64,000 nucleotides of DNA from an uncultured Planctomycetia bacterium (GTDB lineage Bacteria > Planctomycetota > UBA8108), in NCBI GenBank assembly GCA_964615885.1, contig CAZTRG010000149.1:2903-66902 (forward strand), in the 5' to 3' direction. The position numbers and the translations under genes were made by a program. Below are positions 130 to 43,855 of the stretch, in pieces. Below the pieces are notes generated by a model. The model saw only the letters and a list, made by a program, of their open reading frames with translations. It did not search any database and was not told where the DNA came from. The stretch's first letter is position 1, and every line of letters starts with the position of its first letter.

Positions 130-3100
130 ATGTCTGAAACTGATTTTAAGCATCCAAGATACCGGCTCACCAGGACGCTCGGCCAAGGCGGCATGGGGAC
201 CGTCTACGAGGCACTGGACCTTGATTCAGGCAAGCCCCTGGCTCTCAAGCTCTTCAATGAAAGCAGCCCGGCAGACCGCAGGTTGTTTGAGAGCGAGATC
301 AAAACCCTCGGCTCCCTGCAACATGAGAACATTGTGGAGCTGCTCGATGCAGGGGTCAGCAACAACAGGCTCTACTTCACCATGGAGTACCTGCAGGGGG
401 TGCCGCTGGCGGAATTCCCTGCAAAGCCCCTTCCCACCAGGGAGGGCATTGAATGGCTGCTCAGAGTTACGGCCCAGGTGCTTTCAGCGCTTGAGTACAT
501 CCATGACCGGGGCATCATCCATGGTGACCTCAAACCCTCCAACATCATGGTCCTCGCTCCCGATGAGACTTCAGCAGAAGGCCCCTCTCCAGGAGAAACC
601 TTCAAGCCCGGAAAACACCCCGGGATCAAGCTCCTCGATTTCGGCCTGGCGCGGGGAAGCAACCGGCTGACCGGGAATTCACTGGCTGCGATCTCTACCG
701 GATCCCACGGGGACCCTGGCGCCGGAACCCTGCTCTACATGCCAGCGGAACAGCTGGCCGGCAACCAGGTGACGGAACGCTCGGATTTCTACTCACTGGG
801 GGCATCGCTCTACCATCTCATCACCGGGCGCCCCCCCTTCGAAAGCATGACCGCTGCCTTGACCAGGAAGCCGGCGCCTCCACCGGCCTGCGACCTGAAC
901 TCCGCCTGCTCGAAGGAGCTGGCAGAGGCGCTCATCTCCCTCCTGGAAGAGGTGCCCCACAAGCGCCCGTCCAGTGCAGCGGAGGTGGCCGGACTTATTG
1001 GCGCTCCTGGTGGCACCGCGCAGGATGACCTCCCATTAAAACCACGCCTGATGCGCCCGGTCTTTGTCGGCCGCGAAAAAGAACGAAGCCTCCTCCTGGA
1101 AAGCCTCGAACACTCCTGTAAAGAAAACTCCCTGCGCGCAATCCGGGTGGCCGGAGAGTGCGGGATCGGTAAATCCTGGCTCTTTCACTCCAGCGGGCTG
1201 AAGACACGGGCGGAGCTTGAGAAGGAGGCCCTGGTGCTGGCGAGCTCCTTCCGCCAGGACGGACTGGGAAAAATCTTCCTGCAGGATCCCGCCACTGAAT
1301 TCAGCGCTGGGTTCAGAAAGCGTTTCGGCGGGCCGGAGCCGGCCGGCGAAGAGCAGCCCGCCCTGGCGCCCCGGGAAAGCCGGGAAGGGGCCAACGACTC
1401 TGTCATCACCGAGGCCGCGGAGCTGCTCCGTGGCATGGCCCTCCTTCGCCCCCTGGTGGTCATCCTTGAAGACCTCCAGGAGGCCCCGGATGAAGATATC
1501 GAGCTGCTCGAGCGGCTGGTCGCGGCCCTCAGTGACCTCCCCATCCTGGTGCTGCTCAGCTACCGGGAAGAGGCCGGGCTGCCCGGATCTGCACTCGAGA
1601 GATTCGGTAAGCGGCTTGAACGCATGCAACACCCCGCCCCCCTGCGGCTGGGACAGCTGGAGGATCATGCAGTTGAAGAATATGCCGAGTCGGTACTCAG
1701 CCCCAGGCTGCCGGCAACTGCCGAGCTCCTTGAAGCCCTGGGGAAAAGCTCCAGGGGGAATCCCCTGGCCCTCCACAGGGCGCTGGGCAGGCTGGTCACC
1801 GCAGGAGCACTGGCTCGCCAGGACGGCTGCTGGGGCCTTGCTGAACAGCGCGATGGGATGGCGGAAACCGGCGGGGAGACGGCCCTGATCAACTCCCTCA
1901 GCCCCAGGGCCCGCCTCGTGCTGGCGGTTGCCGGGCTGCTTTCTGAAACCTTTGATGGAGCCCTGCTGGCCTGTGTCCTGGAGGACAAGGAGAAGGACGG
2001 ATTGATTCCCACCACGATGTCCGCCCTGGCCTCCTCTGGATTCCTGATCGAGGACATTGATGGTTACCGGCTGGAGCCCGGCTTTCCTTTAGAGAAACTC
2101 CTGGAGGACTTCACCGCCAGGGAGATCAGGAACCTGCATGAACGAATAGCCACCCTGCTGCTTGAGCTCAACCCCAGCCCGGGTTCAGGGCTCTGCATGA
2201 GAATAGCAGGGCATCTTGACGAGGCAGGCAGGGAGGCCGAGGCCTTTGCTTATTACCGCGCTGCCGCCCGCCTGGGCGCCGGCGATTACTCCAACCAGCT
2301 GAGCGAAGAGGCCTACAGCAGGGCCCTGGAGCTGGCGCCCGGGAAAGAGAAACCTGCAATCCTGGATGAGCTGGCCCACCTGCAGCTAAGGTGCGGACGA
2401 ATCGATGAGGCTCTCCGGCTGCTGCTCGAGGCAGAGAAGCTGGACACAGCCGGCAGCACAGGGAAGCGTGAGCCTGCACCAGGCTGCACCAGGAGATGGG
2501 ATGATATTGCACGAGTGCTTCACCGCCAGGGGAGGCTCGATGAAGCCGAGAAATACTTCCTTCGCAGCATGGAGCTGGCCGGTGAAGACGAGGCCCTGCT
2601 GGCGCGGACCTGCTACGGCCTGGCCGGGGTACTTTTTGACCGGCGTGATTTCGCAGGGGCACGAGATCATTACCAGCGCAGCCTCGATTTTTACACGGAC
2701 TCCGCAGACCCCCGAAAGCTCGTCCCCCTGCACCTGGGCCTTGCCCTCATTGACAGAATCGAGAACCAGTATGACGATTGCATCGAACATTTCAGGGAGG
2801 CCCTCAGGCTGGCCCGGAAAACGGGCAACCTGATCGACATCGCCAGGATCCAGGGAAACCTGGCGAACACCCACCGGGTCATGGGCCAGCTGTCCATAGC
2901 TCTTGAGTATCTCGAGGAATCCACCCGGACGAGGAAGCTGGTCGGAGACAAGCAGGGACTTGCCGTCTGCCTCAACAACCTCTCAAGAATCCAGAGCCAC
3001 CGGGGAGAGCTCCAGGCCGCGCTTGAGGCCACCGAAGAGGCGCTCTCTACCTTCCAGGATGTCGGGGATCGAAAAGGTATCGCCATCACCCGCTGTAACC

Positions 3101-3837
3101 TGGGCGAGCTCCTGCTCCTGCTCGGACGGCCCCTCGATGCGAGAAAGATGCTTGAAGAATGTGAACGCCTTGACCGGGAAAACGAGGGAGCGCCCCTGGC
3201 CTGTAATATCCTCTACAACCTCGCCAGGGTTGAGCTCGTCAGCTGTGATGACCCCATGGCCGAAGAGCTCTTCCAGGAATGCCTCAGCAGGCTGCCGGCT
3301 GAACAGGACCAGGACCTCAGGACCCATGCGCTGGCCGGGCTTGCCGAGATCTTTCTGAACAGGGGCATGGAAGAGGCCGCAGAGGATGCCCTGCGGGAAG
3401 CCGAGGAGCTCTCCACTAAGGGAGCCGGGCAGGAAAACCGGATGTACCTGCGTGGACTTCGGATGAGGCTCTGCAGGCAACGCGGAGAGCTCGAGGAAGC
3501 GATCACCCTGGCCGGGGGCAAGCCAGGGGATGAGGCTGGAAGACACGAAGCTGCCCACCTTGCCCTGGAGCTCGGCGCCACCTACCGCGACCTCGGCCCC
3601 GACTGGGCCGACAAGACCGAGAAGTACCTGAACAGGGCTGCGGGGGAATTTGAAAATATGGGCTGTCCGGTTGAGGCAGCCGAAGCACTGGGTGAGCTCT
3701 CCGTCTACTGGAGGCTTACAGGAGAAGAGGAGGCCGCTGCGGAAAACCTGCAGCATGCCGAGAGGCTGCTCAGCTCAGGCCAGCTGGGGCCACGGCTCTC
3801 CCGCTTTACGGAAATATTTAAATCGAGGTCACCATGA
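130..3837 (+). CDS. Multidomain Ser/Thr protein kinase (PknK-like): N-terminal kinase, central P-loop STAND/AAA_16 NTPase, C-terminal TPR repeats
   Basis: Kinase motifs: G-loop [13 protein letters not shown]-like ALKLF, catalytic loop [10 protein letters not shown] (Gly replaces Arg, so non-RD type), DFG present (LLDFGLARG). Walker A GECGIGKS about residue 350. C-terminal degenerate TPR-like helical repeats. 1235 aa. Confidence 0.85.
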
Positions 3838-31547: not shown

Positions 31548-33584
31548 ATGAGGGTTGGACACCGTCTGCTGTCGGTTATTTCGTTTGCGATCTTTTTCAC
31601 CATGGCAGCCTCGCTGCTGACAGCCGAAGATCTTCCACAGGCAGGCTACCGCCTGCAGCCGCGGGAGCCATCGGCACAATACAGGCTGGTCAAACCCCGG
31701 CCCAGGATCCTCTCACGTGGAAGAAACGCCACGGTCACTTCCCTGAGCGCCCGCCAGCAGCAGGTGCTTAGTGCCATGAACCGTCGTGACGGTGATGGTG
31801 GAGGCGCGGACGTCAGCAGCCTCCAGGCCATCCAGTTTTACTATGCTGAATCTTCCTGTGCAGATGCAGATTCTGAGCTGTACAAGGAGGACTGTGGTGG
31901 AGAACCCTGTAATGTCATCGGCCTGCGCTGGGAGGAATCAATCCCCGCCAACTCCGATGGAGTCCTGCTCTTTGTCGATGATGAGCAATTCGGAGATCCG
32001 GTCACCGGGATCCTCCCCGACATTCTCGAAACCGGCAACAATATCAACGGGCTGAACCTCATCGGGCTTGAACCCGGCGAGCATTTCATCCGCATCGAAG
32101 AGCTCAACAACGGCACCCTTGAAGAATTGAGCCTGATCGTTTTCGACGCACCTCCATTTCCCGATGAAACCCACGACCTCAGCACTATCCAGTGCGGCCA
32201 GGCGGAGATCAACGGCAGCTGTGGGCTGGGGGTTACCTTCGGGGCGAATATCGGTGCAGACAACTACCTCGTCTACCTCAATGGAGAGCTGATGAACGAG
32301 GACATCAACGACATCGTCCTGCCTCCCGGAATCATTTTCGGAGGCTTGAACTCGGGCCAGGAATACTGTGTCAGCCTGCAGCCTGAGTGGAGGTCACCCG
32401 AGGCGGTCGGCGATGTACTTTACCTCGGCTGCGTACAGCAGGGCGCCTGCTGTACCATCAACTGTGAGGCCGACCAGTGCAATCCGGTTGCCGGCCTCGA
32501 GATCTGCCAGACCGGCTACAGTGAGGAGGACGGCCTGGCGGAGGTCGAGATCGTGTGGCGCAATATGGAAGCAGCCTACGGCGGCGGGATCAACCTCAGG
32601 ATCGATGAGGACATCCTCGGTACCGGCCCCGTAACCTTCCCCTTCGATCCGGTCGGAGGACAGAACCCCAACCGCGTGATGCTCTCGGGTGTACCCAATA
32701 TGGAGATGAACATCGGCATCCAGGGACTCTGTACCACCCCCCTGGAGGCGAGTGATTTCAACGAGCTGGCGGTCACCGTGCTGCCCTCAAGCCCCTACAC
32801 CGATCCGGTCGAAGGCGATGCTGTCTGTTCCTACGACCCCTCGGGCAACGGAGCAACGACTGCCCGGTGGACCAATACCGGGTATTACAAATCCCTCGAT
32901 GTCTACGTCCTGCCGGCCGGAGAATTGAACCCGGTTTATTCAGACACCATAAGAGGAATCCAGGTCAGCGAGGCTACGATCCGGGGAACCGCTCCGGGCG
33001 ACAGGCTTGTCCTCCAGTTCTTCCGAAACATGGACGGTGGCTGCTACGGCTCAGAGAAGATCCTCTGTATCCAGTCAGCTGACGGCGACGAAGACGGGAT
33101 CCTCGACAACCTGGATAATTGCCCGGTTGTTTCCAACGCCGGACAGGAAGACAGCGATGGCGACGGGGTCGGTGATGAATGCGACAACTGCATCAATTCA
33201 GCCAACCCGAACCAGGCCGACGAAAACGGTAACGGGATCGGGGATGCCTGTGAAGCATCGGAAACGCTTTATTTCGTTCGTTCCGTCTGCCGCAACGGGA
33301 ACACCAATCCGCAGCTCAGCGATGCAGTCTACCTGCTCAACTTCCTCTTCACTGGCGGTGAGGAACCCAATTGCAAGGCGGCCTGCGATACAGATGGAGA
33401 TAGCAGGATCGGACTGACTGATTCGGTCCAGGTGCTCCAGTTCCTGTTCCTCGGTGGAGTTCCTCCCGTAACCTGGGATGGACCCAACCCGATCTGTGAA
33501 ACCTTTGAGCGGGACACCCCGAGCTTCGGGCTGGGCTGCGAAGAGTCCAACAGCTCCTGTTCGAAACCAGGCCGGGTCAACTAG
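31548..33584 (+). CDS. Secreted protein with thrombospondin type-3 (TSP3) Ca-binding repeats and C-terminal dockerin-like repeats
   Basis: Signal peptide (MRVGHRLLSVISFAIFFTMAASLLTA). TSP3 repeats DGDEDGILDNLDNCPVVSNAGQEDSDGDGVGDECDNCINSANPNQADENGNGIGDAC. Dockerin-like CDTDGDSRIGLTDSVQVLQFLFLGG. Confidence 0.65.
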   Translation: MRVGHRLLSVISFAIFFTMAASLLTAEDLPQAGYRLQPREPSAQYRLVKPRPRILSRGRNATVTSLSARQQQVLSAMNRRDGDGGGADVSSLQAIQFYYAESSCADADSELYKEDCGGEPCNVIGLRWEESIPANSDGVLLFVDDEQFGDPVTGILPDILETGNNINGLNLIGLEPGEHFIRIEELNNGTLEELSLIVFDAPPFPDETHDLSTIQCGQAEINGSCGLGVTFGANIGADNYLVYLNGELMNEDINDIVLPPGIIFGGLNSGQEYCVSLQPEWRSPEAVGDVLYLGCVQQGACCTINCEADQCNPVAGLEICQTGYSEEDGLAEVEIVWRNMEAAYGGGINLRIDEDILGTGPVTFPFDPVGGQNPNRVMLSGVPNMEMNIGIQGLCTTPLEASDFNELAVTVLPSSPYTDPVEGDAVCSYDPSGNGATTARWTNTGYYKSLDVYVLPAGELNPVYSDTIRGIQVSEATIRGTAPGDRLVLQFFRNMDGGCYGSEKILCIQSADGDEDGILDNLDNCPVVSNAGQEDSDGDGVGDECDNCINSANPNQADENGNGIGDACEASETLYFVRSVCRNGNTNPQLSDAVYLLNFLFTGGEEPNCKAACDTDGDSRIGLTDSVQVLQFLFLGGVPPVTWDGPNPICETFERDTPSFGLGCEESNSSCSKPGRVN

Positions 33585-33618: not shown

Positions 33619-33656
33619 CCCTGCCCGGCGGCTCATTGCCCGGGCAGGGGTTTTTT
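33619..33656 (+). terminator. Rho-independent terminator (hairpin CCCTGCCCGG / CCGGGCAGGG plus T6) between convergent genes
   Basis: 10-bp perfect stem 33619-33628 / 33640-33649 followed by TTTTTT 33651-33656. Abuts the stop codon of the minus-strand gene 33655..34209. Confidence 0.8.
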
Positions 33657-34209
33657 ATTTCGCAGGAGAACCGGATACCCCCCGGGCCTCCCAGATCACC
33701 TCGGCCCGCAAGACACGGCCGGTCACTGGCAGGCCCTTGTCGACCTCCTCGTCAAGAATCACGGCCTGCGCGCAAACCCCCGGCGGAAGAAAGCCGGCCT
33801 TGAGCGGCAACTTCCCGGGAGCTTCTGCCAGGTCCTCCCGGCTCCAGGCCAGGACGATTCCTCCGTGTGAACCGGGCCCCCTGACCCTGACTCTCCGGCT
33901 GGAGATCCTGCTGACTGCGATACCGGTCCAGACCAGGGGAGGAGACAGGTCTCCCGCAAACAGGGCTGCCAGGCCCAGCTCGTTGACCCCGACAGCTGCC
34001 TTCGTGCCAAGCAAGGCCTCCGCCTCCGCAAGGGCCTCTGCACAGCGGACCTTTTCACCCTGCTCACCCCCCATCCGCCCATGGAGCCCATCGACCATTC
34101 CCTGGGCCAGCTGCAGGCAGCCCTCCAGGGCCTCTCCGCCGCCGGGCCGCCAGGCAGCAGGAAGCTGCCCGGCAATCATGAGCTGATCAGAGCTTTCCGT
34201 CCGCCTCAT
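33655..34209 (-). CDS. Phage P2 gpI-like / TssG-like baseplate wedge protein (CIS component)
   Basis: 184 aa, immediately downstream of and overlapping (ATGA) the gpJ-like gene. Weak similarity to tail protein I (LLP..., ...GT.aAv motifs). Assignment mostly by conserved J-I gene order. Confidence 0.4.
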   Translation of the reverse strand: MRRTESSDQLMIAGQLPAAWRPGGGEALEGCLQLAQGMVDGLHGRMGGEQGEKVRCAEALAEAEALLGTKAAVGVNELGLAALFAGDLSPPLVWTGIAVSRISSRRVRVRGPGSHGGIVLAWSREDLAEAPGKLPLKAGFLPPGVCAQAVILDEEVDKGLPVTGRVLRAEVIWEARGVSGSPAK

Positions 34210-36542
34210 GAGTGGCTCCTGTCTTCGACTGCAGGTTCATCGACCACCTGCTCACACTCAATTTCAACGCCCTCAAGAACACCCACAGCGATGGGAAGGT
34301 CAAGGGCAACGGCAGAATCCAGCGATGATTCCACCCGCAACGTGAACCCGGCTTGCCCGCCGGCCTCACGGAGGATTTCTCCTGCAACAGCACGAACCTG
34401 CTCGCCCCCTAGCTCTGTCACCAGGGGGCACCCCTTCCCTGCTCTTCCACCGCTAAGGGGGTCCAGGTAGCTCTGCAGGCAGGAGGCGAGCCGCTCTCCC
34501 AACCGGGAGACGTCCCGGGCTGCCTCCCCGCTGCGGTCTGTCACACCGAGGTAAACCTTGAAGGGAATCCGCATGGGCTCGACGACCTGGACAACCGTTC
34601 CAAGAGGGACCCTTCGCTGCAGGTAACGCTGCAGCGCTCCCAGGCGCCGGGCTCCCAGTGGCTCAAAACAGGACCCGGCATCAGCCTGCGCAAGGACTGC
34701 TCCCCAGGCAACGACCCAGACCTCCGATGGGCGAAGCGGATGCGCAACGACCTCTATCCTCGAAAGCGATGGATCAAGCTTGCGCAGCAGCCTGTCATAA
34801 TCAGCTCCGCTGACCAGCGTCCCACCGTCGGACTGTTCGGCTGCGAGCCGGCGGTAGAAATGGGCTCCGTTCTCACCCTCCGATCCATCCAGGACCGGAA
34901 CCGGCTGCGAAATGCGCTCGAGACCTTCCACCTCCAGCTCGAGAACATCCAGGCTGTCACGAGGCATGCTCCCTGCCCGGCCGATCCCTGTCCGCAAGCC
35001 CTCGATGCTGGCCTTCACCGGCCCATCGAGAGCCATCCCTGCTATCACCTCTACCTCACCACCGGATTTTCTGCGCAGGCAAAAGCCCTCCGGACCGGGG
35101 GCACCCGTGCCCTCCTCCAGCCTGAGAGTTTTCCAGCCACCTTCGAGGGACAGCTGCAGAGAATCAAAGGGCTCGAAATCGCCTTCCGGATGAGGCGGCA
35201 GCTCCGCCACCGAGCTCCTGAACTGGAGGCTTGCAGGCTGGCTTCCGACCCTGCGGCCCTCGACCACCTCAACTGCACCGGGAACCAGTGTCCTGACCAG
35301 TGCCGGGCTGAAATAGAAGCCGCTGGACCAGCAGGCCCGCACCCAGTAAAGGTCCCTGCCGAAGAGTCTCCTGCGACTCCAGCCCTGCGGCGCCTGCCAG
35401 GATACCGTTCCACTTCCTGTAAAGGCCCGGGTGCCATCGGCCACCTCCAGCTCCCGGAAGGAGTCCTCACAGGAAAACTCCCATTCCAGCCCCGGCCGTC
35501 CGTTCTCCAGGCCGGCCCCGATTCCACCTGAGAGCCAGTACAGGCTGGCCGGCTGCGGTTGATCCCAACCAAGATAGACTGCCGGTGAGTGGCGCTGTGA
35601 CATCGTCCCCAGCTCAAGACCGCCATCGCCAGAGAAGGAATGATCCTGCCACGAATCTCCCGAATGGATGAAAAGGCGCGCAGGGGGACGATCGACAAGC
35701 TTCTTCTGTTTTGATTTCCTGTCTCGCCTCAGGAGCCAGACCACCGTTGGAGTTGCCAGCGAAACAGGGGCTCTCCTGGGCAGTCGAAGACGGATCCATG
35801 GAGAGTCGAAGCCCTCGATCTCGCGGCTTGTCATATCCGGCAGGGGACCATGGATTCTCATGCGCAGCAGGGGTTCGCCTGCGATATTGCAGCTCTGGCT
35901 GAAATCAACCGGCAGCAGCCTCCAGCCGGCACCGCAGGAATACTCCCATTCGCCTTCCAGCACCGCCTGCGGCGTACCCGGCCACTCGAGTACCAGCTCG
36001 GCCTTGTGGCGCCTGAGCTGATCCCACTCGGCATCGCCGAGATAGAGATGATGGTGGAGCCGGTCAGAGCCGAAGAGCCTGACAGGAGCTTCCCCTTCTC
36101 CATCGACGGGAAGCTGCCGGGCCAGGTCTCCCTCGAGCACCACTGCATGCTCCAGGCGGGCCGTGGAAACCCAGCCATCCGCTGCTGTCTCAAAGTAGAC
36201 CCGTCCCTCCGCAGCTGTCTTGCGGGAGGCGGTTAGAGCTGTTGCCGCCGGAACCTTTACGGCCCCCTGCAGCCCTTCGCCCGGATGGAATTTGACCGCC
36301 GAGCTTGCGGCAAGCGGCCAGGAGGGCTCGTGACCGAGCTCCGCCAGCAGGCGTGGCAGGATACGCCCGGTACTTTCAGCCAGCTCACCCTCCAGGCGGG
36401 CAAGCACAACAGCAAAGCTCTCCAGCACGGCCCGGGCAGGATCCCCGGGTCCCCGGGCCGCCCAGTCCGGAATGCGTGCAGCAGCAGCCCTCTCGAGCTC
36501 CCGAAGAGCTTCCCGTTCCCGGCCGTCCTGGGGGTCCTGCAT
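34206..36542 (-). CDS. Baseplate J-like protein (P2 gpJ / T4 gp6 / TssF-like) of a contractile injection system
   Basis: N-terminal Baseplate_J-like region (DPARAVLESFAVVLARLEGEL..., FETAADGWVSTARL). Size 778-790 aa typical for Afp11/Pvc11-like proteins. Start ambiguous: GTG 36578 (ORF track), ATG 36566, or ATG 36542 (chosen, GGTGGAG RBS, no overlap with gp25). Confidence 0.7.
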   Translation of the reverse strand: MQDPQDGREREALRELERAAAARIPDWAARGPGDPARAVLESFAVVLARLEGELAESTGRILPRLLAELGHEPSWPLAASSAVKFHPGEGLQGAVKVPAATALTASRKTAAEGRVYFETAADGWVSTARLEHAVVLEGDLARQLPVDGEGEAPVRLFGSDRLHHHLYLGDAEWDQLRRHKAELVLEWPGTPQAVLEGEWEYSCGAGWRLLPVDFSQSCNIAGEPLLRMRIHGPLPDMTSREIEGFDSPWIRLRLPRRAPVSLATPTVVWLLRRDRKSKQKKLVDRPPARLFIHSGDSWQDHSFSGDGGLELGTMSQRHSPAVYLGWDQPQPASLYWLSGGIGAGLENGRPGLEWEFSCEDSFRELEVADGTRAFTGSGTVSWQAPQGWSRRRLFGRDLYWVRACWSSGFYFSPALVRTLVPGAVEVVEGRRVGSQPASLQFRSSVAELPPHPEGDFEPFDSLQLSLEGGWKTLRLEEGTGAPGPEGFCLRRKSGGEVEVIAGMALDGPVKASIEGLRTGIGRAGSMPRDSLDVLELEVEGLERISQPVPVLDGSEGENGAHFYRRLAAEQSDGGTLVSGADYDRLLRKLDPSLSRIEVVAHPLRPSEVWVVAWGAVLAQADAGSCFEPLGARRLGALQRYLQRRVPLGTVVQVVEPMRIPFKVYLGVTDRSGEAARDVSRLGERLASCLQSYLDPLSGGRAGKGCPLVTELGGEQVRAVAGEILREAGGQAGFTLRVESSLDSAVALDLPIAVGVLEGVEIECEQVVDEPAVEDRSHS

Positions 36543-36555
36543 ATTCTCCACCGAT

Positions 36556-36918
36556 TCAGCGCACATTGTTTTTCTCACCCTGGAGGCTGAAGGTTAAATT
36601 CATCAAGCCCCCCCCGCCCTCCAGGCTCACCTGGATTTTCCCGTCCCCGGCAGCCAGTATTTTCACCCGGCGAACTCCGGCCCAGGGGGCCCACTCACCC
36701 AGGGCCTCTTCAATAAAAACCGCGGCGAGCTGCCGCTCATGCTGTGTTTCAATTTTCCCCATGCTGTGTACCCGGCACCCGAAGGAAGGCAGCAGCGGAC
36801 GCTCTCCAGGCTGAACCTCAAGAATAAGCCGCAACCTCTCTTCCACCAGCCGGCCGTCTGCTTCCAGCTCCCGGGTCCCTGCGAAGAAGGCGTCCACGGT
36901 CTCAACCCTGCCGACCAT
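36556..36918 (-). CDS. gp25/GPW-like baseplate wedge protein (TssE/Afp9-like)
   Basis: MVGRVETVD...ILEVQPGERPLLPSFGCRVHS...IEEALGEWAP matches the GPW_gp25 signature. ATG at 36916-36918 with AGGGAGGTG RBS. The longer ORF-track N-terminus (to 37383) overlaps the hub gene in another frame and is artefactual. Confidence 0.8.
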   Translation of the reverse strand: MVGRVETVDAFFAGTRELEADGRLVEERLRLILEVQPGERPLLPSFGCRVHSMGKIETQHERQLAAVFIEEALGEWAPWAGVRRVKILAAGDGKIQVSLEGGGGLMNLTFSLQGEKNNVR

Positions 36919-37792
36919 CTTCACCTCCCTTCCAGCGCTCAAGATCGACACCGTTTTCGAGATAATCAACCCGGGTGCGGTAACCGAGCCTGTCCCAGCA
37001 ATGCCGCGCCCTGGCCACCCTGTAGCGCCCCACAGCCAGGCGACCCCGGCCCACGATGTCAAACTCCTGCAGCGGAAGCCAGCCGGGATCTCCGGCGAGC
37101 TCGAAGAAGCCGCCCTTACCCCGTGATGAATGCTCCTCGATGACAAATTCAAGCACACGGTCATCTGCGTACAGCACTCCTGCACAGGGGGGCAGGCCGG
37201 GAACATCGGCTCCAGCCGGCAAGCTCGCAGAGAAGTAGAGCCTGCCGGCGGTAACCGCAAGCTCATACCCGATCGCCCTCGCCCGCTGTCGCAGGAATTC
37301 CAGCCTTTCACCCGGGCATTCAACCAGCTCGAGGACCTCCGTGGTTGGCTCGACAGCCGGCTGCAGCCCCAGCTCACGGGCAAACATACCGGCCAGCTCC
37401 GAATCGCAGTGGTGGTAAAAAGTCTGCGGCTCGTGGAGAAGGGATGCTTCCCGCTGGTGGCAATGAGCCCTCAGCAATCCCACCGTTCCAGCACGGTCCC
37501 GCTTCAGTCCGCGGTCACGAATCCGGCCGCGGAAGAGGGGACCGGACGGCAACTCGATGACCAGCTCAGCGCCGGGAACCAGGGAGTCGAGCACCTCCTC
37601 CACTCCCGGAGAGGCGCCGTCGGCGGCAAATAAGATCTCCAGGTGGTCAAAGCCGTCGGCCTGGAGAAAAACCTCGCAGCCCAGGAGCGTCGTCCCGGAG
37701 GGGAGAACAGAGCAAACCGGCAGCTGCTGCTGGCCTGGAGCCAGCTGCAATCCGGAGGAGCTGGTTGGATAAACCCGTGTTTTCTCGATCAT
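36902..37792 (-). CDS. Phage late-control gpD / gp27-like baseplate hub protein (short, no recognisable gp5-like spike extension)
   Basis: 296 aa. C-terminal GRYRVARARHCWDRLGYRTRVDY fits the VgrG/gpD hub motif (GxYxVxxVxHxxxxxxYxNxF). Position between tube genes and gp25 is as in eCIS/P2. Confidence 0.55.
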   Translation of the reverse strand: MIEKTRVYPTSSSGLQLAPGQQQLPVCSVLPSGTTLLGCEVFLQADGFDHLEILFAADGASPGVEEVLDSLVPGAELVIELPSGPLFRGRIRDRGLKRDRAGTVGLLRAHCHQREASLLHEPQTFYHHCDSELAGMFARELGLQPAVEPTTEVLELVECPGERLEFLRQRARAIGYELAVTAGRLYFSASLPAGADVPGLPPCAGVLYADDRVLEFVIEEHSSRGKGGFFELAGDPGWLPLQEFDIVGRGRLAVGRYRVARARHCWDRLGYRTRVDYLENGVDLERWKGGEDGRQG

Positions 37793-37820
37793 GCGCTCAG
37801 CCCATCTGCTCTCGGCCTGT

Positions 37821-38234
37821 TCATCCTCTCATCTCCAGTCGAACCAGGCCGCGAACAGGAGTTCCATCGGGGTCGAAACGAACCCAGTCCTCCTCGATCC
37901 GGTCGATATAGCCTGTAAACCGAAAAGGTCCCCAGAGAAAAACGACCTTCGCAGGAGGGCCGCCCGGCGATTGCGGATCCATCCAGCCTTCGAGCTTCTC
38001 GGCAATCTCGCGCAGGTTCCGCTCATCCAGCGGACGACGGGTCGAGTCGAGGAAGAGCTCGGTTGAAAAACGTTCTTCGCAAGCACCGCTCAGCGCGGCC
38101 TGCATGCCCGCCGGGGCAAGCTGGTTTTTCTTCGAGAGTGAATACTTGGCCGGGTTCCAGTCAACCGTCACGGTCTCCATGCTGCCGAGATCGGTCAGCT
38201 CCGCCTTGACCAGTCCGTTCAGTTTTTCTTCCAT
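37821..38234 (-). CDS. Hypothetical CIS-associated protein (between tube and hub genes)
   Basis: 137 aa, overlaps the tube gene by 16 nt. Conserved-looking C-terminus VVFLWGPFRFTGYIDRIEEDWVRFDPDGTPVRGLVRLE. No family assigned. Confidence 0.35.
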   Translation of the reverse strand: MEEKLNGLVKAELTDLGSMETVTVDWNPAKYSLSKKNQLAPAGMQAALSGACEERFSTELFLDSTRRPLDERNLREIAEKLEGWMDPQSPGGPPAKVVFLWGPFRFTGYIDRIEEDWVRFDPDGTPVRGLVRLEMRG

Positions 38235-38638
38235 CTTAATCCTTCGTAGACGATCTCCAGTTTTTCGAGCGCGATCTCCGGGTCCCGTGCATCCAGTGGT
38301 GGGCCTTTCCAGCTGACCGCCAGGGCGCTGTGAAAACTCCAGCGCATGCTCTCCTTGCCATCCTCATCGAGGAGCACAACGGCGCCGCTGCGCGGCAGTG
38401 CATCCTGGTACCAGTTCCAGAGCTCCGCATCGCGGGTCAGGCCACGCTCGAGCACCAGCCTTCCTGTCGAGGGGCCATCCTCAAAGAACTCGACCCTGTC
38501 GGAGCCGCCTTCGCGGTACTCCAGGACCTCGCGACTGCTCTCGAGTCCCGAGCAGCTGACAAAACCAGCCGTCGAAACCCCCTCGAGCTCGAGATCAAAG
38601 CGATCACCTCTCAGCAATTCCTTCAGCAGCACTCTCAT
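38219..38638 (-). CDS. Contractile-system tube protein, T4 gp19 / Hcp-like (Afp5/tube-initiator-like)
   Basis: FDLELEGVSTAGFVSCSGLESSREVLEYREGG...GRLVLERGLTRDAELWNW matches the conserved phage-tail-region tube signature. GGGAGA RBS. Confidence 0.8.
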   Translation of the reverse strand: MRVLLKELLRGDRFDLELEGVSTAGFVSCSGLESSREVLEYREGGSDRVEFFEDGPSTGRLVLERGLTRDAELWNWYQDALPRSGAVVLLDEDGKESMRWSFHSALAVSWKGPPLDARDPEIALEKLEIVYEGLRWKKN

Positions 38639-38665
38639 GCCTGGAATCTCCCTGTGCGAAAAGCT

Positions 38666-39175
38666 TTATTCACCGGCAACCTCTCCATCGCTGACCCGCT
38701 CCAGCCTCTCGACTACCAGCTCCAGGGTCTCAATACTGATTTCTTCTCCGCTTATATCCAGCAGGGGCCCCTCGTAACGGCAAGGCCAGGCAGCGTAAAA
38801 GTTCCACCTGGCCGTCTCTCTCAGGGCCGCATCCAGCAGCACGATCGAGCCGTTGCGGAGATCCTCTTCCCCCTCCTCAATACCTTTGCGCCAGAGGTAA
38901 AATGCATCGGAGGTCGTAACTCCCCTCTTGAGGAGGATATTGCCGTAGACGGCCCGCCCGGGAATCTGCATTGCTGTTGCCTGGTTACCTACCCTGTACT
39001 CCAGCACCTCTGAACGGGAAACCAGCCCGCTCACTTCACGAAAACTTCCGGCAAGGTCTCCGCCGCCTTCTCCAAGGCCATCGACCTCGACGAGAAAATT
39101 GCAGTTGGCGGTCAATTCGAAGGCCTGCCGCGACTGCTTCGGTTCAAGTTGTGTCCCTGGTTTCCTGATGACCAT
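38666..39175 (-). CDS. Contractile-system tube protein, T4 gp19 / Hcp-like (Afp1-like)
   Basis: FLVEVDGL...GSFREVSGLVSRSEVLEYRVGN...YGNILLKRGVTTSDAFYLWR matches the tube signature. Start codon overlaps the stop of the upstream gene (ATGA). Confidence 0.85.
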   Translation of the reverse strand: MVIRKPGTQLEPKQSRQAFELTANCNFLVEVDGLGEGGGDLAGSFREVSGLVSRSEVLEYRVGNQATAMQIPGRAVYGNILLKRGVTTSDAFYLWRKGIEEGEEDLRNGSIVLLDAALRETARWNFYAAWPCRYEGPLLDISGEEISIETLELVVERLERVSDGEVAGE

Positions 39176-40143
39176 CAGCTTACCGACTCCTCCAGGACAG
39201 CGCTGCCGGCAGGAAGAAGCTGTTCCACCTCGACCCCATCGCAGGTATCCATTCGCGTCCGAACAGCGATGGACAATCTGCGCTCAAAGCCCTCTGCCCC
39301 ATCCTCCGGGTCACCCACCAGCGACACCTTCAGCTCAAACCCCTTTCGAAAGGGCAGGAATCCATCGACGGCCAGGCTGTGAAGGAAAGCCCTCACCTCC
39401 CGCTCAAGCTTCCGCAGAAGAACCTCTGAGGCGTACTCGAATACTGTCCAGCGAGTCCCTGTCTCCAGTGAACGGCGAAGCCCCTGGCGGCGGCGCCAGG
39501 TCACCAGGGCACGCAGCTCATCGGGGAAGGGAAGAAGGTCTCCCTCCCCTCCGATCCCGCTGCGAATCGCCAGGCTTGACCTCTGGAGTGCAGAGGGTGT
39601 TCGAAGGGGGAAAAAGTCCCTGGCCTCCAGGCAGCCGGCAAGGCAGGCCGCCGAAGGTTTCCCGGGAACCTTTGCCTCCAGGACAGCCAGGTTAGGCAGC
39701 GGTCTCCGCAGGCAGGCTCCAGGCTCTCCACCAGCCTGCTGCCCGCTTCCTCCCACCACCTGGCAGCACAGCAGCAGCATTGGATGCTGCAATGCAAAAT
39801 CTTCAAGTAAGCCGGTTGCCTCGGGCCTCACCGGCGGCAGGACCACCGTACCGACCTCATCCCTGCCGGCCAGCTCGTACAAACCGGAGCACTCCCCGGG
39901 GGCTCCCGGCTCACCAAGCAGCTGCGAGAGGGCCTCCTCGTCAAGCACTCCATCCCTGTATCCGGCTTCGGTGGAGAGAGAGAGGGGCTCCAGGAGAAGC
40001 TCCAGCCCGCCTCCGCCGGTAAAGTCCTCCACCAGGGCTTTCTCCTGCGCAGCTGTTTCTTCCAGGCCCGGAGCTCTCAGCAGGACCATGGCAGTCTTGC
40101 CGCAGCCAGTCCAGGTCAGAGAACCCTGATGAGAAATCGACAT
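39175..40143 (-). CDS. Putative contractile sheath protein (short, about 322 aa)
   Basis: ATG at 40141-40143 with GGGGAGGAG RBS, 4 nt after the cap-gene stop. Position cap-X-tube-tube as in eCIS loci. C-terminus WTVFEYASEVLLRKLEREVRAFLHSLAVDGFL...FELKVSLVGD resembles the sheath C-terminal domain pattern (W.vFE...FL..L..G.L....F.v.cd). The first 106 codons of the ORF-track model are an out-of-frame overlap artefact. Confidence 0.45.
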   Translation of the reverse strand: MSISHQGSLTWTGCGKTAMVLLRAPGLEETAAQEKALVEDFTGGGGLELLLEPLSLSTEAGYRDGVLDEEALSQLLGEPGAPGECSGLYELAGRDEVGTVVLPPVRPEATGLLEDFALQHPMLLLCCQVVGGSGQQAGGEPGACLRRPLPNLAVLEAKVPGKPSAACLAGCLEARDFFPLRTPSALQRSSLAIRSGIGGEGDLLPFPDELRALVTWRRRQGLRRSLETGTRWTVFEYASEVLLRKLEREVRAFLHSLAVDGFLPFRKGFELKVSLVGDPEDGAEGFERRLSIAVRTRMDTCDGVEVEQLLPAGSAVLEESVS

Positions 40144-40147
40144 AATT

Positions 40148-40765
40148 TTACTCCTCCCCTTGCTTGAGAACCCGCTCGAGGCGAACCTCTCTTTCAAGAA
40201 CCCTCTCCACTGTCTTGTAGTTTTGCGAGACCACCGGCAATGACACCTCGAAGCTGATCCCGAGGTGATGACGGGGAAGTCCCAGCTCCCGCCAGGCATC
40301 CCTGTCTTCGACGATCTCAACAGGAAGCTCAGCCATCTCGAGGCCCACCTCCTTGCCCAGGAACTCCTCCATCTCCCCCACCGGCAACAACGCGATGGAA
40401 TGAAGAAGCTGAAGCACCGCCTCGACTGAGCCCATCTCCTCCTGGGGAGTCGCCTCCACAATCATGAAAACGTAGCGCAGGCTGACCCAGAGGGCTCCAC
40501 CGCGGCTGCGGCCCGGCAGCCCGGCCTCCTGCGCCGGCTGCATCCGGGCTCCGGCCTGCCGGTACCTGGCAGCGGGAGAAACCCGCTGCAGGTAGAGAAC
40601 CCCCCTGGCCCCGTATTCGACATCATCCCCTGCTCCCCGGGGCGGAAGATCAATCGGATGACAGAGATAGACAGGAATCTCCTGCTGTTGAGCCGTTCCA
40701 CGAACCGCCTCCTCAAGGCGAATCGCCAGGTAACGGCTCAGATCGTAGAAATCCCCTGGCCTCAT
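40148..40765 (-). CDS. DUF4255-like protein (putative tail terminator/cap, Afp16/Pvc16-like)
   Basis: 205 aa, immediately upstream of the sheath candidate. Weak motif similarity (IPVYLCHPIDLPP..., GVLYLQRVSP versus the DUF4255 N-terminal/LFLYDIRE pattern). Confidence 0.45.
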   Translation of the reverse strand: MRPGDFYDLSRYLAIRLEEAVRGTAQQQEIPVYLCHPIDLPPRGAGDDVEYGARGVLYLQRVSPAARYRQAGARMQPAQEAGLPGRSRGGALWVSLRYVFMIVEATPQEEMGSVEAVLQLLHSIALLPVGEMEEFLGKEVGLEMAELPVEIVEDRDAWRELGLPRHHLGISFEVSLPVVSQNYKTVERVLEREVRLERVLKQGEE

Positions 40766-40831
40766 GGAATTAACCTCCCTCCCCGGGAGCCCATGCAGGG
40801 CCTCTCACTGGAATACCACGCTGCTGTTGGT

Positions 40832-41329
40832 TCAGCCCGAATCATTCTCAATACCCATCCCTTGTCGCCTGCTCATTGCTCCATCCATGTACTCATCAAC
40901 AAGAGCATGGATCGAGGTGAATGAAAAATTACCTGTCCGTCCTTCCCCACCGGCCGCCTTGCGGATCGGCACGTAGCTACCATCCCTGCACGCTACCCCG
41001 AGAAGCTCCACCGCTTCTTCAGAACCGCTTCCCAGGAGCTCAGTGGCAGCCACCGCACCGTGGAGACTGTTGTGAAAACGAAAGCTCCCCCGGGGAGTTT
41101 CGATCACGAATTCCAGCCCATCCAGCAACCGGGAGCCGGGAGCCTGCACCTCGTCGGCCTCTGCAGGATCCGCCACGGCACCTCTTGTCCTGAAGGCCAA
41201 CTCAAGATTCCTGAAAAAACGTCCAAGCGCCTGGGCGTGCCCCCGCGGAACACCCGGCTCCAGGACGGAATGGTTTCTCCCCGCAGGAACCGAAAAGGCC
41301 TTCGCTATGGTTGGCCGAAGAGCTCTCAT
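40832..41329 (-). CDS. Hypothetical protein in CIS operon
   Basis: 165-aa ORF between the FHA gene and the cap candidate, same strand, short intergenic gaps. No family recognised. Confidence 0.35.
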   Translation of the reverse strand: MRALRPTIAKAFSVPAGRNHSVLEPGVPRGHAQALGRFFRNLELAFRTRGAVADPAEADEVQAPGSRLLDGLEFVIETPRGSFRFHNSLHGAVAATELLGSGSEEAVELLGVACRDGSYVPIRKAAGGEGRTGNFSFTSIHALVDEYMDGAMSRRQGMGIENDSG

Positions 41330-41360
41330 TCTCTACACTGTCCTTCTCGATTGCATTGCT

Positions 41361-43094
41361 TCACGGCACAGCTCTCCCACCACCATCGACCAGCGCGGCT
41401 CCCCCTGCCCCCTCCAGGAGCAGGCGGGCTCCCAGGTCCTCCAGGAGAGCCTCCTTCTCCAGCAATCGCTGCCTCACATCGTCTGCATATTTCCTCAGCA
41501 GGACCAGCTCTTCTGAACGACTTGATTCGCTGTCGCGGAGGCCATCGAGCTGCGCTTCCTGGTCCCGGCGCTTTTTCTCGGCAGCCACCAGGCGCCCCTG
41601 CAGAAGCTCGATCTCGCGCTGGAGGCGTTTTTCTGCTTTCTCTCTTTCGCGGCCGTAGAAGGCAAGCTCCCGGTTCACCTTCCTGTACTTTTCCTCGCTC
41701 CGGGCAAGTGCAGCCGCCTGGGTATCCATCGTCTGCTGAAGCTCCGTGGTACCCGAGCTGAGCAGCTCCAGCTCTTTTTCAATCTCCCCGCAACGCAGCC
41801 TGCACCCGGCACCGTCGGTCCGCTCCTGCTCAAGCTCTTCCTGCATGCGCAGGGCCGATTGCCTGCCGCTATCGGACTCCGCAAGGGCTTCTGCAAGCTG
41901 GGCCGCCTGTTTTTCAAGCTCGGCCCGGCTGCCCTTCAGCTCTGCCGTCATTCGTTCTTTCTCAGCCTGCAGGCTCTTGATGTTCTTCCGGTAGGCGCTG
42001 CTGAGGTCCTGCTCGGTCTCCTCCAGGCGTTTACGATTCTCTTCCTCCTGGCTGGCAAGCTCACTGCGATGATGGTGGGAATCCTGCTTCCTTTCAGCCA
42101 GGAGCGAATCAAGCTCACTGCGAAGACCGGCGAGCTCTGCACGAAGACCGATGGTGATCTCACGTTCCTTCTCGAGCTCGCCAGCGCTCGACTCAAGGCG
42201 GCGGTTCAGCTCAGCCTGGCCCGATACTGATTCAGTAAGCTTGCCTGTTTCTTCAAGCAAGAGACTGCTCACATCTGCCTGCCCTGCCTCTGCCTCACCC
42301 AGCTTCACCTGCAGATCCTGGACCTCCTGCTGCGCTACCTCTGCCTCACCCAGCTTCACCTGTAGATCCTGGACCTCCTGCTGCGCTGCCTGCAGAGATT
42401 CCATGGAATCAGCGAGCTGCTGCTGGTGATTCTCCGCCTGCTCGGCCAGCTCCGACTGAACCGCCTCCAGCTCTTTCTGCAGCTTGCCGTCCCGCGCCCG
42501 AGGCCTCCCTGGCTCTGCAGGCTGTCCTGCCTCGACCCTGGAAAGCTCATCCCTGGCTTCCTCCAGCTGGCTCTCCAGCCGGCCCCTGGCAGCCATGACG
42601 CTTTTCAGGCCGGCCACCAGCCGCTTCTTCTGGTCCAGGCGCTGGGCAAGCTTCTGGCTGAGCTCCTCGTTCTGCCGGGTCAGCCGCGCCCGGGCCTTCT
42701 CAAGCTCGACCTTCTTGGCCTCCGCAGCCTTCGCACGCCTCAGCAAGGCCCGGTCGGCCCCCGAAGCGCCTGGAGAGCTGCCTCCCGCACTCCCGGTATC
42801 AGGAATCACCGACAACCTTGTACCCCCGACCCGCAGAAGATCACCTGTTCGAAGACTTGCACGATCGACCGGCCGCTCATTCAGGAAGGTACCCCTGGAG
42901 CTCCCCAGGTCTTCGACCACCACCTCATCGCCCTCCTTCTGGAGGCGGGCGTGGCTTGGAGAAACCAGGGAATCGCTGATACACAGCTCACATTCACCGG
43001 CGCTGCCGATATCGATGGAATCCCGCAGAGGAAAGACCTTTCCTCTAAACTCTCCATTCAATACCCGCAGCATGAAACCTTCAGAGACTTTCAT
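41361..43094 (-). CDS. FHA-domain protein with about 450-aa coiled-coil C-terminal region
   Basis: N-terminal FHA (GKVFPLRDSIDIGSAGECELCISDSLVSPSHARL...GSSRGTFLNERPV). The remainder is heptad-rich, Glu/Leu/Gln/Arg-rich coiled coil with an in-frame 51-bp tandem duplication. First gene of the minus-strand CIS block. Confidence 0.8.
   Translation of the reverse strand: MKVSEGFMLRVLNGEFRGKVFPLRDSIDIGSAGECELCISDSLVSPSHARLQKEGDEVVVEDLGSSRGTFLNERPVDRASLRTGDLLRVGGTRLSVIPDTGSAGGSSPGASGADRALLRRAKAAEAKKVELEKARARLTRQNEELSQKLAQRLDQKKRLVAGLKSVMAARGRLESQLEEARDELSRVEAGQPAEPGRPRARDGKLQKELEAVQSELAEQAENHQQQLADSMESLQAAQQEVQDLQVKLGEAEVAQQEVQDLQVKLGEAEAGQADVSSLLLEETGKLTESVSGQAELNRRLESSAGELEKEREITIGLRAELAGLRSELDSLLAERKQDSHHHRSELASQEEENRKRLEETEQDLSSAYRKNIKSLQAEKERMTAELKGSRAELEKQAAQLAEALAESDSGRQSALRMQEELEQERTDGAGCRLRCGEIEKELELLSSGTTELQQTMDTQAAALARSEEKYRKVNRELAFYGREREKAEKRLQREIELLQGRLVAAEKKRRDQEAQLDGLRDSESSRSEELVLLRKYADDVRQRLLEKEALLEDLGARLLLEGAGGAALVDGGGRAVP
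42287..42388 (-). repeat. In-frame 51-bp tandem duplication (2 copies, 2 mismatches) inside the FHA/coiled-coil gene
   Basis: Copy 1 at 42287-42337 and copy 2 at 42338-42388 (cctctgcctcacccagcttcacctg[c/t]agatcctggacctcctgctgcgct[a/g]c). Encodes AQQEVQDLQVKLGEAE twice. Confidence 0.85.
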
Positions 43095-43123: not shown

Positions 43124-43855
43124 TTGAATCTTCACTTCAATTTTTCACCGGGGCTGACCCGGCAGGGGATTCAGGCCTGCAGTTTAGCGTTTAGCCGCCT
43201 GGGATGGAAGTTTGAAACTGCCCCCACAGAGCCTTCAACAAAGCCCCACACCCCGTTTGCCACCCGGCAGGGAACGGTATATAACCCACCTGTGAATCCG
43301 CAACAGACTAGCACCCCGGTTCATTGCCCCAACTGCGGACACCCCGTAGACCGCCAACCCATCCATTGCACCGTCTGCGGATATCAAAGCCAGTCGGTTA
43401 AAGAGTACTTCTGGATGTATCTCGGCGGCGGCGTGCTGATCCTGCTGGGGGCACTTCATGTGGTGCTTGGAACACTCTCACAGGACTCCAGGCAGGACCA
43501 TTGGAGCCGTTTATTTTCAGGCTGGTATCCCCTGGGGCCCTGGCCTGCAGATTCAAACTGGTTCGCGATTGTGCTCCTTGGGATCGCACTGACCCTGATT
43601 GGACTGGGCTTCACCAGGCACTTCAAATCGTCTTTTTACGCAGGAATCGTTCTTTTCGGCTGGCAAATTTTATGCGCCGGAAAAAAACTCCTCTCAGGCT
43701 CCCCTGAAAACACAGCCCGTTTCACTGTCTTATCTGCACTGATCCTTGAAGTCCTTTTACTGCTATTGGTTATACGGATAGGTATGGCTCTCAAAAGGAC
43801 ACCCGGGAGAGAAATCGACCGCCTCCAGAGAGGGCCTCAAAAAGCTGAAGAATAG
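43124..43855 (+). CDS. Zn-ribbon-containing integral membrane protein (about 4 TM helices)
   Basis: CPNCGHPV...CTVCGY zinc ribbon followed by hydrophobic helices (YLGGGVLILLGALHVVLG, FAIVLLGIALTLIGLGF, etc.). Divergent from the CIS operon. True start uncertain (could be internal). Confidence 0.45.
   Translation: MNLHFNFSPGLTRQGIQACSLAFSRLGWKFETAPTEPSTKPHTPFATRQGTVYNPPVNPQQTSTPVHCPNCGHPVDRQPIHCTVCGYQSQSVKEYFWMYLGGGVLILLGALHVVLGTLSQDSRQDHWSRLFSGWYPLGPWPADSNWFAIVLLGIALTLIGLGFTRHFKSSFYAGIVLFGWQILCAGKKLLSGSPENTARFTVLSALILEVLLLLLVIRIGMALKRTPGREIDRLQRGPQKAEE

Follow-up and report, generated by a model that had tools for sequence, protein, structure and literature searches.

The sheath gene and its cassette

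Positions 33655–43094 on the reverse strand of a 64,000-nucleotide stretch of contig CAZTRG010000149.1, from an uncultured Planctomycetia bacterium (the whole stretch is called the window below), hold a cassette of 11 genes spanning about 9.4 kb. In gene order, the cassette encodes a protein with an FHA domain and a coiled-coil-like region, a 165-amino-acid (aa) protein, a cap protein, the 322-aa protein studied here, two tube proteins, an Afp7-like protein, an Afp8-like hub, a gp25-like protein, an Afp11-like protein, and a 184-aa protein (Table 1). Because profile searches, profile–profile alignment, fold comparison, and a six-frame scan of the window all agree, we conclude that the 322-aa protein is a sheath of the contractile injection system (CIS) type, that it is highly divergent, and that its gene is the sole sheath gene of the operon.

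The open reading frame (ORF) begins with ATG at 40143–40141 and ends with TGA at 39177–39175. A Shine-Dalgarno sequence read from the DNA, GGGGAGGAG (40159–40151, reverse strand), lies 7 nt 5' of the ATG and adjoins the stop codon of the cap gene (TAA, 40150–40148). At the other end, the junction with the tube gene reads TGATG, in which the sheath stop codon and the tube ATG (39175–39173) have one base in common. The sheath gene is translationally coupled between the cap and tube genes. A reading made from the DNA alone (the sequence-only reading) had placed a real ORF with a good ribosome-binding site between a cap-like gene and two tube genes, and the coordinates, GGGGAGGAG, and the families of the neighboring genes confirm it; the overlap of stop and start codons that it described also exists, but as one shared base rather than the four-base ATGA. 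Sheath homologues begin at the equivalent start position. The maximal ORF of 428 aa was rejected as the gene, since it overlaps the cap gene and its additional part is not sheath-like. A sigma-70 promoter scan found none, and terminator-like sites were not clearly over background.

The ORF is a genuine gene and not a chance ORF, because many metagenomic contigs encode the same protein or relatives of it, its ratio of nonsynonymous to synonymous substitutions (dN/dS) is 0.23 (pairwise, against the 80%-identical ortholog in the related locus L003), and length and gene order are retained among relatives at 30–90% identity. The gene is under purifying selection, and a pseudogene reading was rejected as contradicted by the conservation data.

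Table 1. Features of the cassette and of the sheath protein, with the evidence for each
Feature	Position in window	Strand	Evidence or remark
FHA-domain protein, 577 aa, first gene	41361–43094	-	Yop-YscD_cpl 8e-18, FHA 7e-15 on residues 10–96
165-aa conserved protein	40832–41329	-	No significant family or PDB match
Cap/terminator, Afp16/Pvc16-like, 205 aa	40148–40765	-	Pvc16_N E 7.8e-5, below Pfam cut-off
Sheath, 322 aa, core-only type	39175–40143	-	Profiles, hhalign, AlphaFold2/Foldseek, dN/dS
Predicted alpha/beta domain of sheath (sheath domain 2, 'subtilisin-like')	39619–40113	-	Residues ~11–175; pLDDT 85–97
Predicted C-terminal domain of sheath (sheath domain 1, gp25-like)	39214–39531	-	Residues ~205–310; three helices and three strands
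Tube protein, 169 aa	38666–39175	-	Phage_T4_gp19 5e-32; TIGR02241, CIS5/CIS1 families
Second tube-family protein, 139 aa, Afp5/Cis5-like	38219–38638	-	Phage_T4_gp19 7e-27
Afp7-like CIS_tube protein, 137 aa	37821–38234	-	PF19266 1.5e-12
Hub, 296 aa, like N-terminal part of Afp8/Pvc8	36902–37792	-	Ortholog profile against PDB
gp25-like sheath initiator (Afp9), ~122 aa	~36556–36924	-	GPW_gp25 2.6e-7; start GTG 36924 or ATG 36918
Baseplate wedge, 790 aa, Afp11/gpJ-like, TssF-like N-terminus	34206–36578	-	TIGR02243 7e-16
184-aa conserved protein	33655–34209	-	No Pfam, PHROG, NCBIfam, or PDB match

Sequence evidence for a divergent sheath

As a single sequence, the 322-aa protein had no match at E ≤ 0.1 in Pfam, PHROGs, or NCBIfam; phmmer against PDB returned only chance protocadherin matches, and tblastn against 50,697 phage records returned no match. 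Five family members (P0031, P0033, P0034, P0038, and P0046) likewise had no Pfam match. Since canonical relatives of the family are matched by Pfam, the models are too insensitive here and a different fold is not implied. Of the 30 close relatives, none has a Pfam annotation, and all are 309–322 aa long except for fragments and for two more distant proteins of 287 and 348 aa. At E ≤ 1e-3, an exhaustive profile search collected 412 proteins. Full-length relatives of 280–390 aa make up the first ~70 clusters (at 50% identity), while the remaining members, of 400–1100 aa, are matched through their C-terminal part; all four of these longer proteins that were tested carry Phage_sheath_1 (PF04984) and Phage_sheath_1C (PF17482). 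A profile search of a word-indexed protein database gained almost no further members. One relative, P0052 (643 aa), carries a Pvc16_N cap domain (residues 53–137) followed by a full mini-sheath (residues 247–577), and is either a natural cap–sheath fusion or a merged gene call. Apart from the close relatives, a scan of GTDB genomes returned a handful of C-terminal-motif matches from other phyla, among them ORFs of 391 and 525 aa (L013 and L015) that we assumed to encode canonical sheaths.

Profiles built from the family reached the solved sheaths. A profile of 23 relatives matched the Halogeometricum borinquense CIS sheath 9ezm (1.5e-7) and Streptomyces Cis2 (2e-6) among PDB sequences, with three colinear motifs aligned: FxxNGG, GPGxRTGL...DEvs.V.P, and a C-terminal VFEPN...W.R....FL block. 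With a 50-member profile the matches were 9ezm at 9.2e-19, Cis2 at 5e-15, Afp3 at 1.5e-5, and Afp2 and the tCIS protein All3325 at 2.4e-4, with Pvc2–4 and pyocin PA0622 weaker; every PDB match at E ≤ 1 (14/14) was a sheath. Profile–profile alignment (hhalign) with a set of ten small canonical sheaths, of which two were verified as carrying Phage_sheath_1 and Phage_sheath_1C, gave probabilities of 99.2% (E 3e-19) and then 99.8% (E 1.4e-29) over 294–302 columns, the 302-column span joining query residues 4–305 to residues 18–385 of a 396-aa sheath. Thus the sequence-only reading was right in its first alternative, that the ORF encodes a sheath, and in noting that its C-terminus resembles the sheath C-terminal domain, a likeness that is real and statistically supported by the profiles and hhalign. 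The Pfam search that it proposed gave no match for the single sequence, but family profiles and hhalign did find sheath similarity, and its alternative of a sheathless, non-contractile tube system is not supported.

The sheath gene is also the only one of its kind in the window. A hidden Markov model (HMM) of canonical sheaths, applied to the ORFs in all six reading frames of the window, matched this ORF alone (E 1.7e-10) and no second sheath-like ORF; none of the other cassette genes in the window matched any sheath family, and the genes called in related loci list none. A larger sheath gene, which the sequence-only reading named as the observation that would speak against its assignment, was found neither in the operon nor in the window. 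These results bear on the possibility that the protein serves as a sheath-like accessory adaptor in the manner of Afp3/Afp4 or Pvc3/Pvc4, with the main sheath encoded elsewhere in the genome. The several sheath paralogues of Afp and PVC lend this some plausibility, as does a genome view of 64 kb; against it stand the lack of a sheath family among the other genes of this and the related loci, the place of the gene directly before the tube gene, which is that of a main sheath, and the fact that single-sheath CIS are common (PMC10066040). We therefore consider an adaptor very improbable. Identity with TssB/TssC of type VI secretion systems (T6SS) was rejected as well, because the gene is single rather than split, has no Pfam match, and shares its locus with Afp11- and Afp16-like genes, homologues of which the classical T6SS does not have (PMC6899500).

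Predicted fold, missing segments, and possible mechanism

Two AlphaFold2 models of the protein had a mean predicted local distance difference test score (pLDDT) of 74.9 and 80.3 and a predicted template modeling score (pTM) of 0.78 and 0.82. Their Foldseek matches in PDB below 1e-3 were sheaths only, namely those of the pyocin (3j9r), the haloarchaeal system (9ezm), and the Streptomyces coelicolor CIS (9gts), with probability 1.0 and query TM-scores (TMq) of 0.39–0.50; the pyocin sheath was the top match, so that the AlphaFold comparison proposed in the sequence-only reading has the pyocin and Streptomyces CIS sheaths as its first matches. The models predict that the sheath core fold is present, as an alpha/beta domain (domain 2) and a C-terminal domain (domain 1), and that they hold these two core domains only, with no surface domain. 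The motifs of the alpha/beta domain (WxGxG, FxxGGG, and GEPGAPGExSGLYEL..DEVGTVVLP) are colinear with those of 9ezm, Cis2, and canonical sheaths. The motif of the C-terminal domain, WRRxxGLRRSLExGTRWxVFE...LEREVRAFLHSL, is the best-scoring stretch against all solved sheaths. At the C-terminal end, strands are predicted at residues 288–296 and 304–310, after which come 12 tail residues that include a conserved acidic motif; pLDDT falls below 50 at the end. Weak, partial Foldseek matches to gp25-like proteins would be accounted for by a fold that, we assume, these proteins share with the sheath C-terminal domain.

The size of the protein is not exceptional, because 'one-domain' (type 1) sheaths of 321–410 aa reach down to 321 aa (Evseev et al., 2022, PMC9230969) and Afp2/Pvc2 have 354–355 aa. 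The shortest modeled one-domain sheath, from Ca. Bathyarchaeota, has 321 aa and is without about 30 N-terminal residues of the 341-aa sheath of Burkholderia phage BEK (PMC9230969). On its modeled domain content, the window sheath fits this type, with 322 aa and no domain beyond the common core, and close relatives are as short as 309–315 aa. Its length corresponds to the known lower size limit and is small, neither a record nor unprecedented. The sequence-only reading was therefore correct in calling the protein small, as it lies at the reported lower bound of 321 aa, but not in treating it as exceptional. Similarly, the presence of one sheath gene, which it set against the two or three of Afp/PVC, is real but ordinary, as pyocins, AlgoCIS, tCIS, and Streptomyces CIS normally have just one (PMC10066040).

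Two elements present in every canonical sheath aligned here are missing, in that comparison, from the window sheath and its family. The first is the N-terminal PGVY (PGVYxEE) arm, which has no counterpart. The family motif W-x-G-x-G-x-T-A aligns with the Cis2 'VGTSVAAFVG' strand (residues ~24–38) and the canonical 'VGTSVCAFIG', which leaves about 10 residues before the first core strand in the window sheath, and the leaders across the family are 2–51 aa long, unconserved, and without a PGVY motif; a short non-canonical arm is possible in the window sheath. The second is a segment of about 38 residues before the C-terminal domain (GVNxIR..G..VWGART), and the region of the query that matches this gap (~183–202 in the first model and 194–201 in the second) has low model confidence. 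In known sheaths, a conserved inter-subunit beta-strand handshake joins the N-terminus of one subunit to the C-terminus of another (PMC13324602), and when the N-terminal linker of Cis2 is made longer, the sheath is locked in its extended form (PMC10066040). With both elements absent, the linkage between subunits may therefore differ from the canonical three-strand handshake.

Taking these data together, the 322-aa protein is probably the working, single sheath subunit of a compact chromosomal CIS. Such a sheath would retain only the two wall-forming domains listed in Table 1. By analogy with solved sheaths, its polymerization, which we infer, would start on the gp25-like initiator of a baseplate built from the gp25-like, 790-aa, 184-aa, and 296-aa hub proteins; the sheath would wrap the gp19-type tube as a helix, the Pvc16-like protein would cap it, and contraction would drive the tube out. 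Several points weigh against this reading: the curated families (Pfam, PHROGs, and NCBIfam) miss the single sequence, the aligned sequences of the family appear to offer no counterpart of the N-terminal arm and to lack the conserved ~38-residue segment, the TM-scores of the models to solved sheaths are only about 0.5 with a large root-mean-square deviation, and the locus has no recognizable tape measure, spike needle, PAAR, ATPase, or effector.

The ortholog profile of the hub matched Pvc8 (9qgm_8A, 533 aa; E 1.7e-5) at Pvc8 residues 53–141 and 291–340, and 7aef_q at 0.008; as the match is limited to these residues, the C-terminal needle part is absent, and the tip of the machine may be blunt or unconventional. 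We take the matched part of Afp8/Pvc8 to be gp27-like. No tape measure, spike needle, PAAR, fiber, or effector was recognized at the locus, and no Afp15-type AAA+ ATPase was found in the cassette, among the tested ORFs of the 64-kb window, or in the 20-kb related loci. Together with the family-wide absence of the PGVY arm and the ~38-aa segment and with the role of linker geometry in Cis2 contraction (PMC10066040), the needle-less hub and the lack of a recognized PAAR, effector, or ATPase could mean that the protein is a sheath homologue without contractility, forming a static coat or scaffold around the tube of a non-injecting and perhaps structural machine. However, the gp25-like initiator, cap, tube, and wedge are under purifying selection, consistent with a functioning contractile module, the predicted strands and the tail at the C-terminus are kept, and the 321-aa archaeal sheath that likewise lacks about 30 N-terminal residues was modeled as a normal core (PMC9230969). 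We accordingly regard loss of contractility as unlikely, while taking it more seriously than the adaptor discussed above.

Conservation of the cassette and its neighborhood

The GTDB scan yielded eight close loci, six in metagenome-assembled genomes (MAGs) of Planctomycetota/Planctomycetes and two in MAGs of oceanic uncultured bacteria, and the isolate names of these MAGs indicate marine samples (ALOHA and a 3000-m sample). On every contig of sufficient length, all 11 genes are present and keep their order. Among the close loci, L001 and L007–L010 are the most distant; relative to them, amino-acid identity is highest for the 139-aa tube protein (82%) and lowest for the FHA protein (about 40%), with the sheath (47–48%) among the more variable genes of the cassette. 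Compared with L003, dN/dS was 0.23 for the sheath and 0.015–0.38 for the others, and thus below 0.4 for all 11 genes. The 139-aa tube protein is the most conserved, with a dN/dS of 0.015 and 98.6% identity to L003, and it keeps 82% identity in loci where the sheath has only 47%; its 169-aa paralogue has a dN/dS of 0.18. The same cassette also houses sheaths of about 30% identity (P0034 in L016 and P0038 in L017). L001 and L017 also have the flanking housekeeping genes for aspartokinase, NAD synthase, and MoaE/ThiS, and this shared position argues for vertical inheritance of the cassette in marine Planctomycetota at a fixed chromosomal site, rather than for a mobile island. The remainder of the window consists of housekeeping genes and contains no tRNA genes, and the rise in G + C content at the locus is modest (0.61–0.63 versus 0.56–0.62).

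These observations also concern the possibility that the gene is a decaying sheath remnant in a degenerate prophage-tail locus, for which one could cite the small size, the loss of conserved segments, and the lack of a curated-family match. The substitution ratios of the sheath and of all its cassette partners contradict it, as do the length and frame kept in dozens of relatives, the fixed chromosomal position common to deeply diverged loci, and the combination of no tRNA genes in the window, no match to phage DNA, and only a modest rise in G + C content. We give this explanation hardly any credence, less even than an adaptor.

Further observations concern the cassette partners. Besides its N-terminal FHA domain, the FHA protein contains a long stretch that is rich in repeats and coiled-coil-like. 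Its position is kept in L001 and L003–L010, with a counterpart there in every related locus that extends so far, and the same domains recur in L017. It could be a phospho-dependent regulator or anchor; speculatively, as the sole long and probably helical protein of the cassette, it could also be a length ruler. The 165-aa protein occurs in all loci, including the distant L002, with syntenic genes for 152–193-aa proteins in L016 and L017, and the 184-aa protein is kept in all full loci; profiles of the two proteins found nothing in PDB or Pfam. From its place after the J-like gene, the 184-aa protein is possibly an analogue of gpI/TssG/Afp12, on our assumption that P2-like tails place gpI at this position. 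The orthologs of the cap have precomputed PF14065 matches, and the gp25-like ortholog in L001 was called at 122 aa. The best PDB matches of the 139-aa tube protein were 9gtp_a, Pvc5, and Afp5, and that of the 790-aa wedge was 9gtp_1K, the J-like protein of the S. coelicolor CIS baseplate (3e-9); matches of the wedge to Baseplate_J and TssF were weaker and did not reach the curated cut-offs. In L002, L016, and L017 an additional gene for a protein of about 107–115 aa lies between the two tube genes, and in L016 a further 165-aa gene precedes the CIS_tube gene; both are absent from the window, and neither additional L016 product has a Pfam match.

Outside the cassette, a gene divergent from the FHA gene (43124–43855, forward strand) encodes a 243-aa zinc-ribbon protein whose C-terminal two-thirds are largely hydrophobic and, judged by eye, probably membrane-spanning. 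It is found at the equivalent position in L001 (58% identity) and the distant L017 (44%), and may act with the CIS as its membrane partner or simply belong to a conserved neighborhood. Convergent to the end of the cassette, and neighboring it in L001 too, is a gene (31548–33584, forward strand) for a 678-aa protein with thrombospondin type-3 repeats and an N-terminal hydrophobic stretch that resembles a signal peptide by eye. The forward-strand gene at 130–3837, 37 kb from the FHA gene, encodes a Ser/Thr protein kinase (1235 aa) that contains AAA_16 and TPR regions and is conceivable as a partner of the FHA protein.

The locus has a sheath, and by homology one of contractile type. What stands out is not the size of the sheath but how far it has diverged, that two conserved elements are missing from it, and that its compact cassette is undescribed. 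As curated models (Pfam, NCBIfam, and PHROGs) miss the whole core-only family, surveys that need a recognized sheath would probably overlook such loci. The family is a natural experiment on minimal sheath content, and contraction without the canonical N-terminal linker, if it occurs, would affect how sheath mechanics are understood under the accepted handshake model, as well as how minimal injection devices are designed. That the cassette has a fixed place in the chromosome and an FHA partner suggests that it serves a cellular function in this abundant, uncultured marine group. In the literature searched, we found no description of CIS in Planctomycetes or Planctomycetota. Tentatively, and with more doubt than confidence, we propose that the cassette represents a 'mini-CIS' lineage that is undescribed and is inherited vertically in marine Planctomycetota, with 11 genes, an FHA/coiled-coil gene at its head, a needle-less hub, no recognized ATPase, tape measure, PAAR, fiber, or effector, and a sheath without the canonical N-terminal linker and the adjacent segment. 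Such a lineage would imply a different linkage between subunits and possibly an intracellular, phospho-regulated role instead of toxin injection.

Comparison with known systems

Eight components are common to more than 85% of extracellular CIS (eCIS) loci (Chen et al., 2019, PMC6899500). The window has homologues of Afp1/5, Afp2–4, Afp7, Afp8 (N-terminal part), Afp9, Afp11, and Afp16, so that seven of the eight are in the cassette, with Afp16 below the Pfam cut-off in the window copy. Unlike eCIS, however, the locus and window have no Afp15-type ATPase and no recognizable Afp10, Afp12, Afp13, or Afp14, and, in contrast to the eCIS of that survey, the locus lies at a shared chromosomal position with housekeeping flanks.

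Among individual sheaths, Afp2/Pvc2 (6rao_C and 6j0b_A) and R2 pyocin PA0622 (3j9q/3j9r) are small too (354–386 aa). In structure the pyocin sheath ranks first among the matches, and both Afp2 and Afp3 match the family by profile, but these sheaths are 30–60 aa longer than that of the window, their sequence similarity is weak (E 2e-4 to 0.14), and Afp and PVC have two or three sheath paralogues where the window cassette has one. The best profile match, which is also a Foldseek match, is the H. borinquense sheath 9ezm; it is larger, with 574 aa, has a large insertion between the NGG and GPG-RTGL motifs, and retains the hairpin-motif segment lost in the window sheath. One-domain sheaths (PMC9230969) are of the same size class and core-only, and the 321-aa archaeal member is likewise without about 30 N-terminal residues. 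They are known as models and are likened here by description, whereas the window family is found on contigs of Planctomycetota type in a cassette of its own.

The closest known parallel is CIS-Sc of S. coelicolor (Cis2, 8bky, 8bl4, and 9gts; baseplate, 9gtp), which has a single sheath gene and is chromosomal and not phage-borne, as here, and whose chains are among the best solved matches of the window sheath, tube, and J-like protein. Cis2, with 534–539 aa, is built from three domains, of which domain 3 is a flexible surface domain, and has an N-terminal linker (PMC10066040). The window sheath differs from it in having no domain 3, no PGVY arm, and no ~38 aa before the C-terminal domain, and the window cassette differs from CIS-Sc in belonging to another phylum and in being headed by an FHA/coiled-coil gene.

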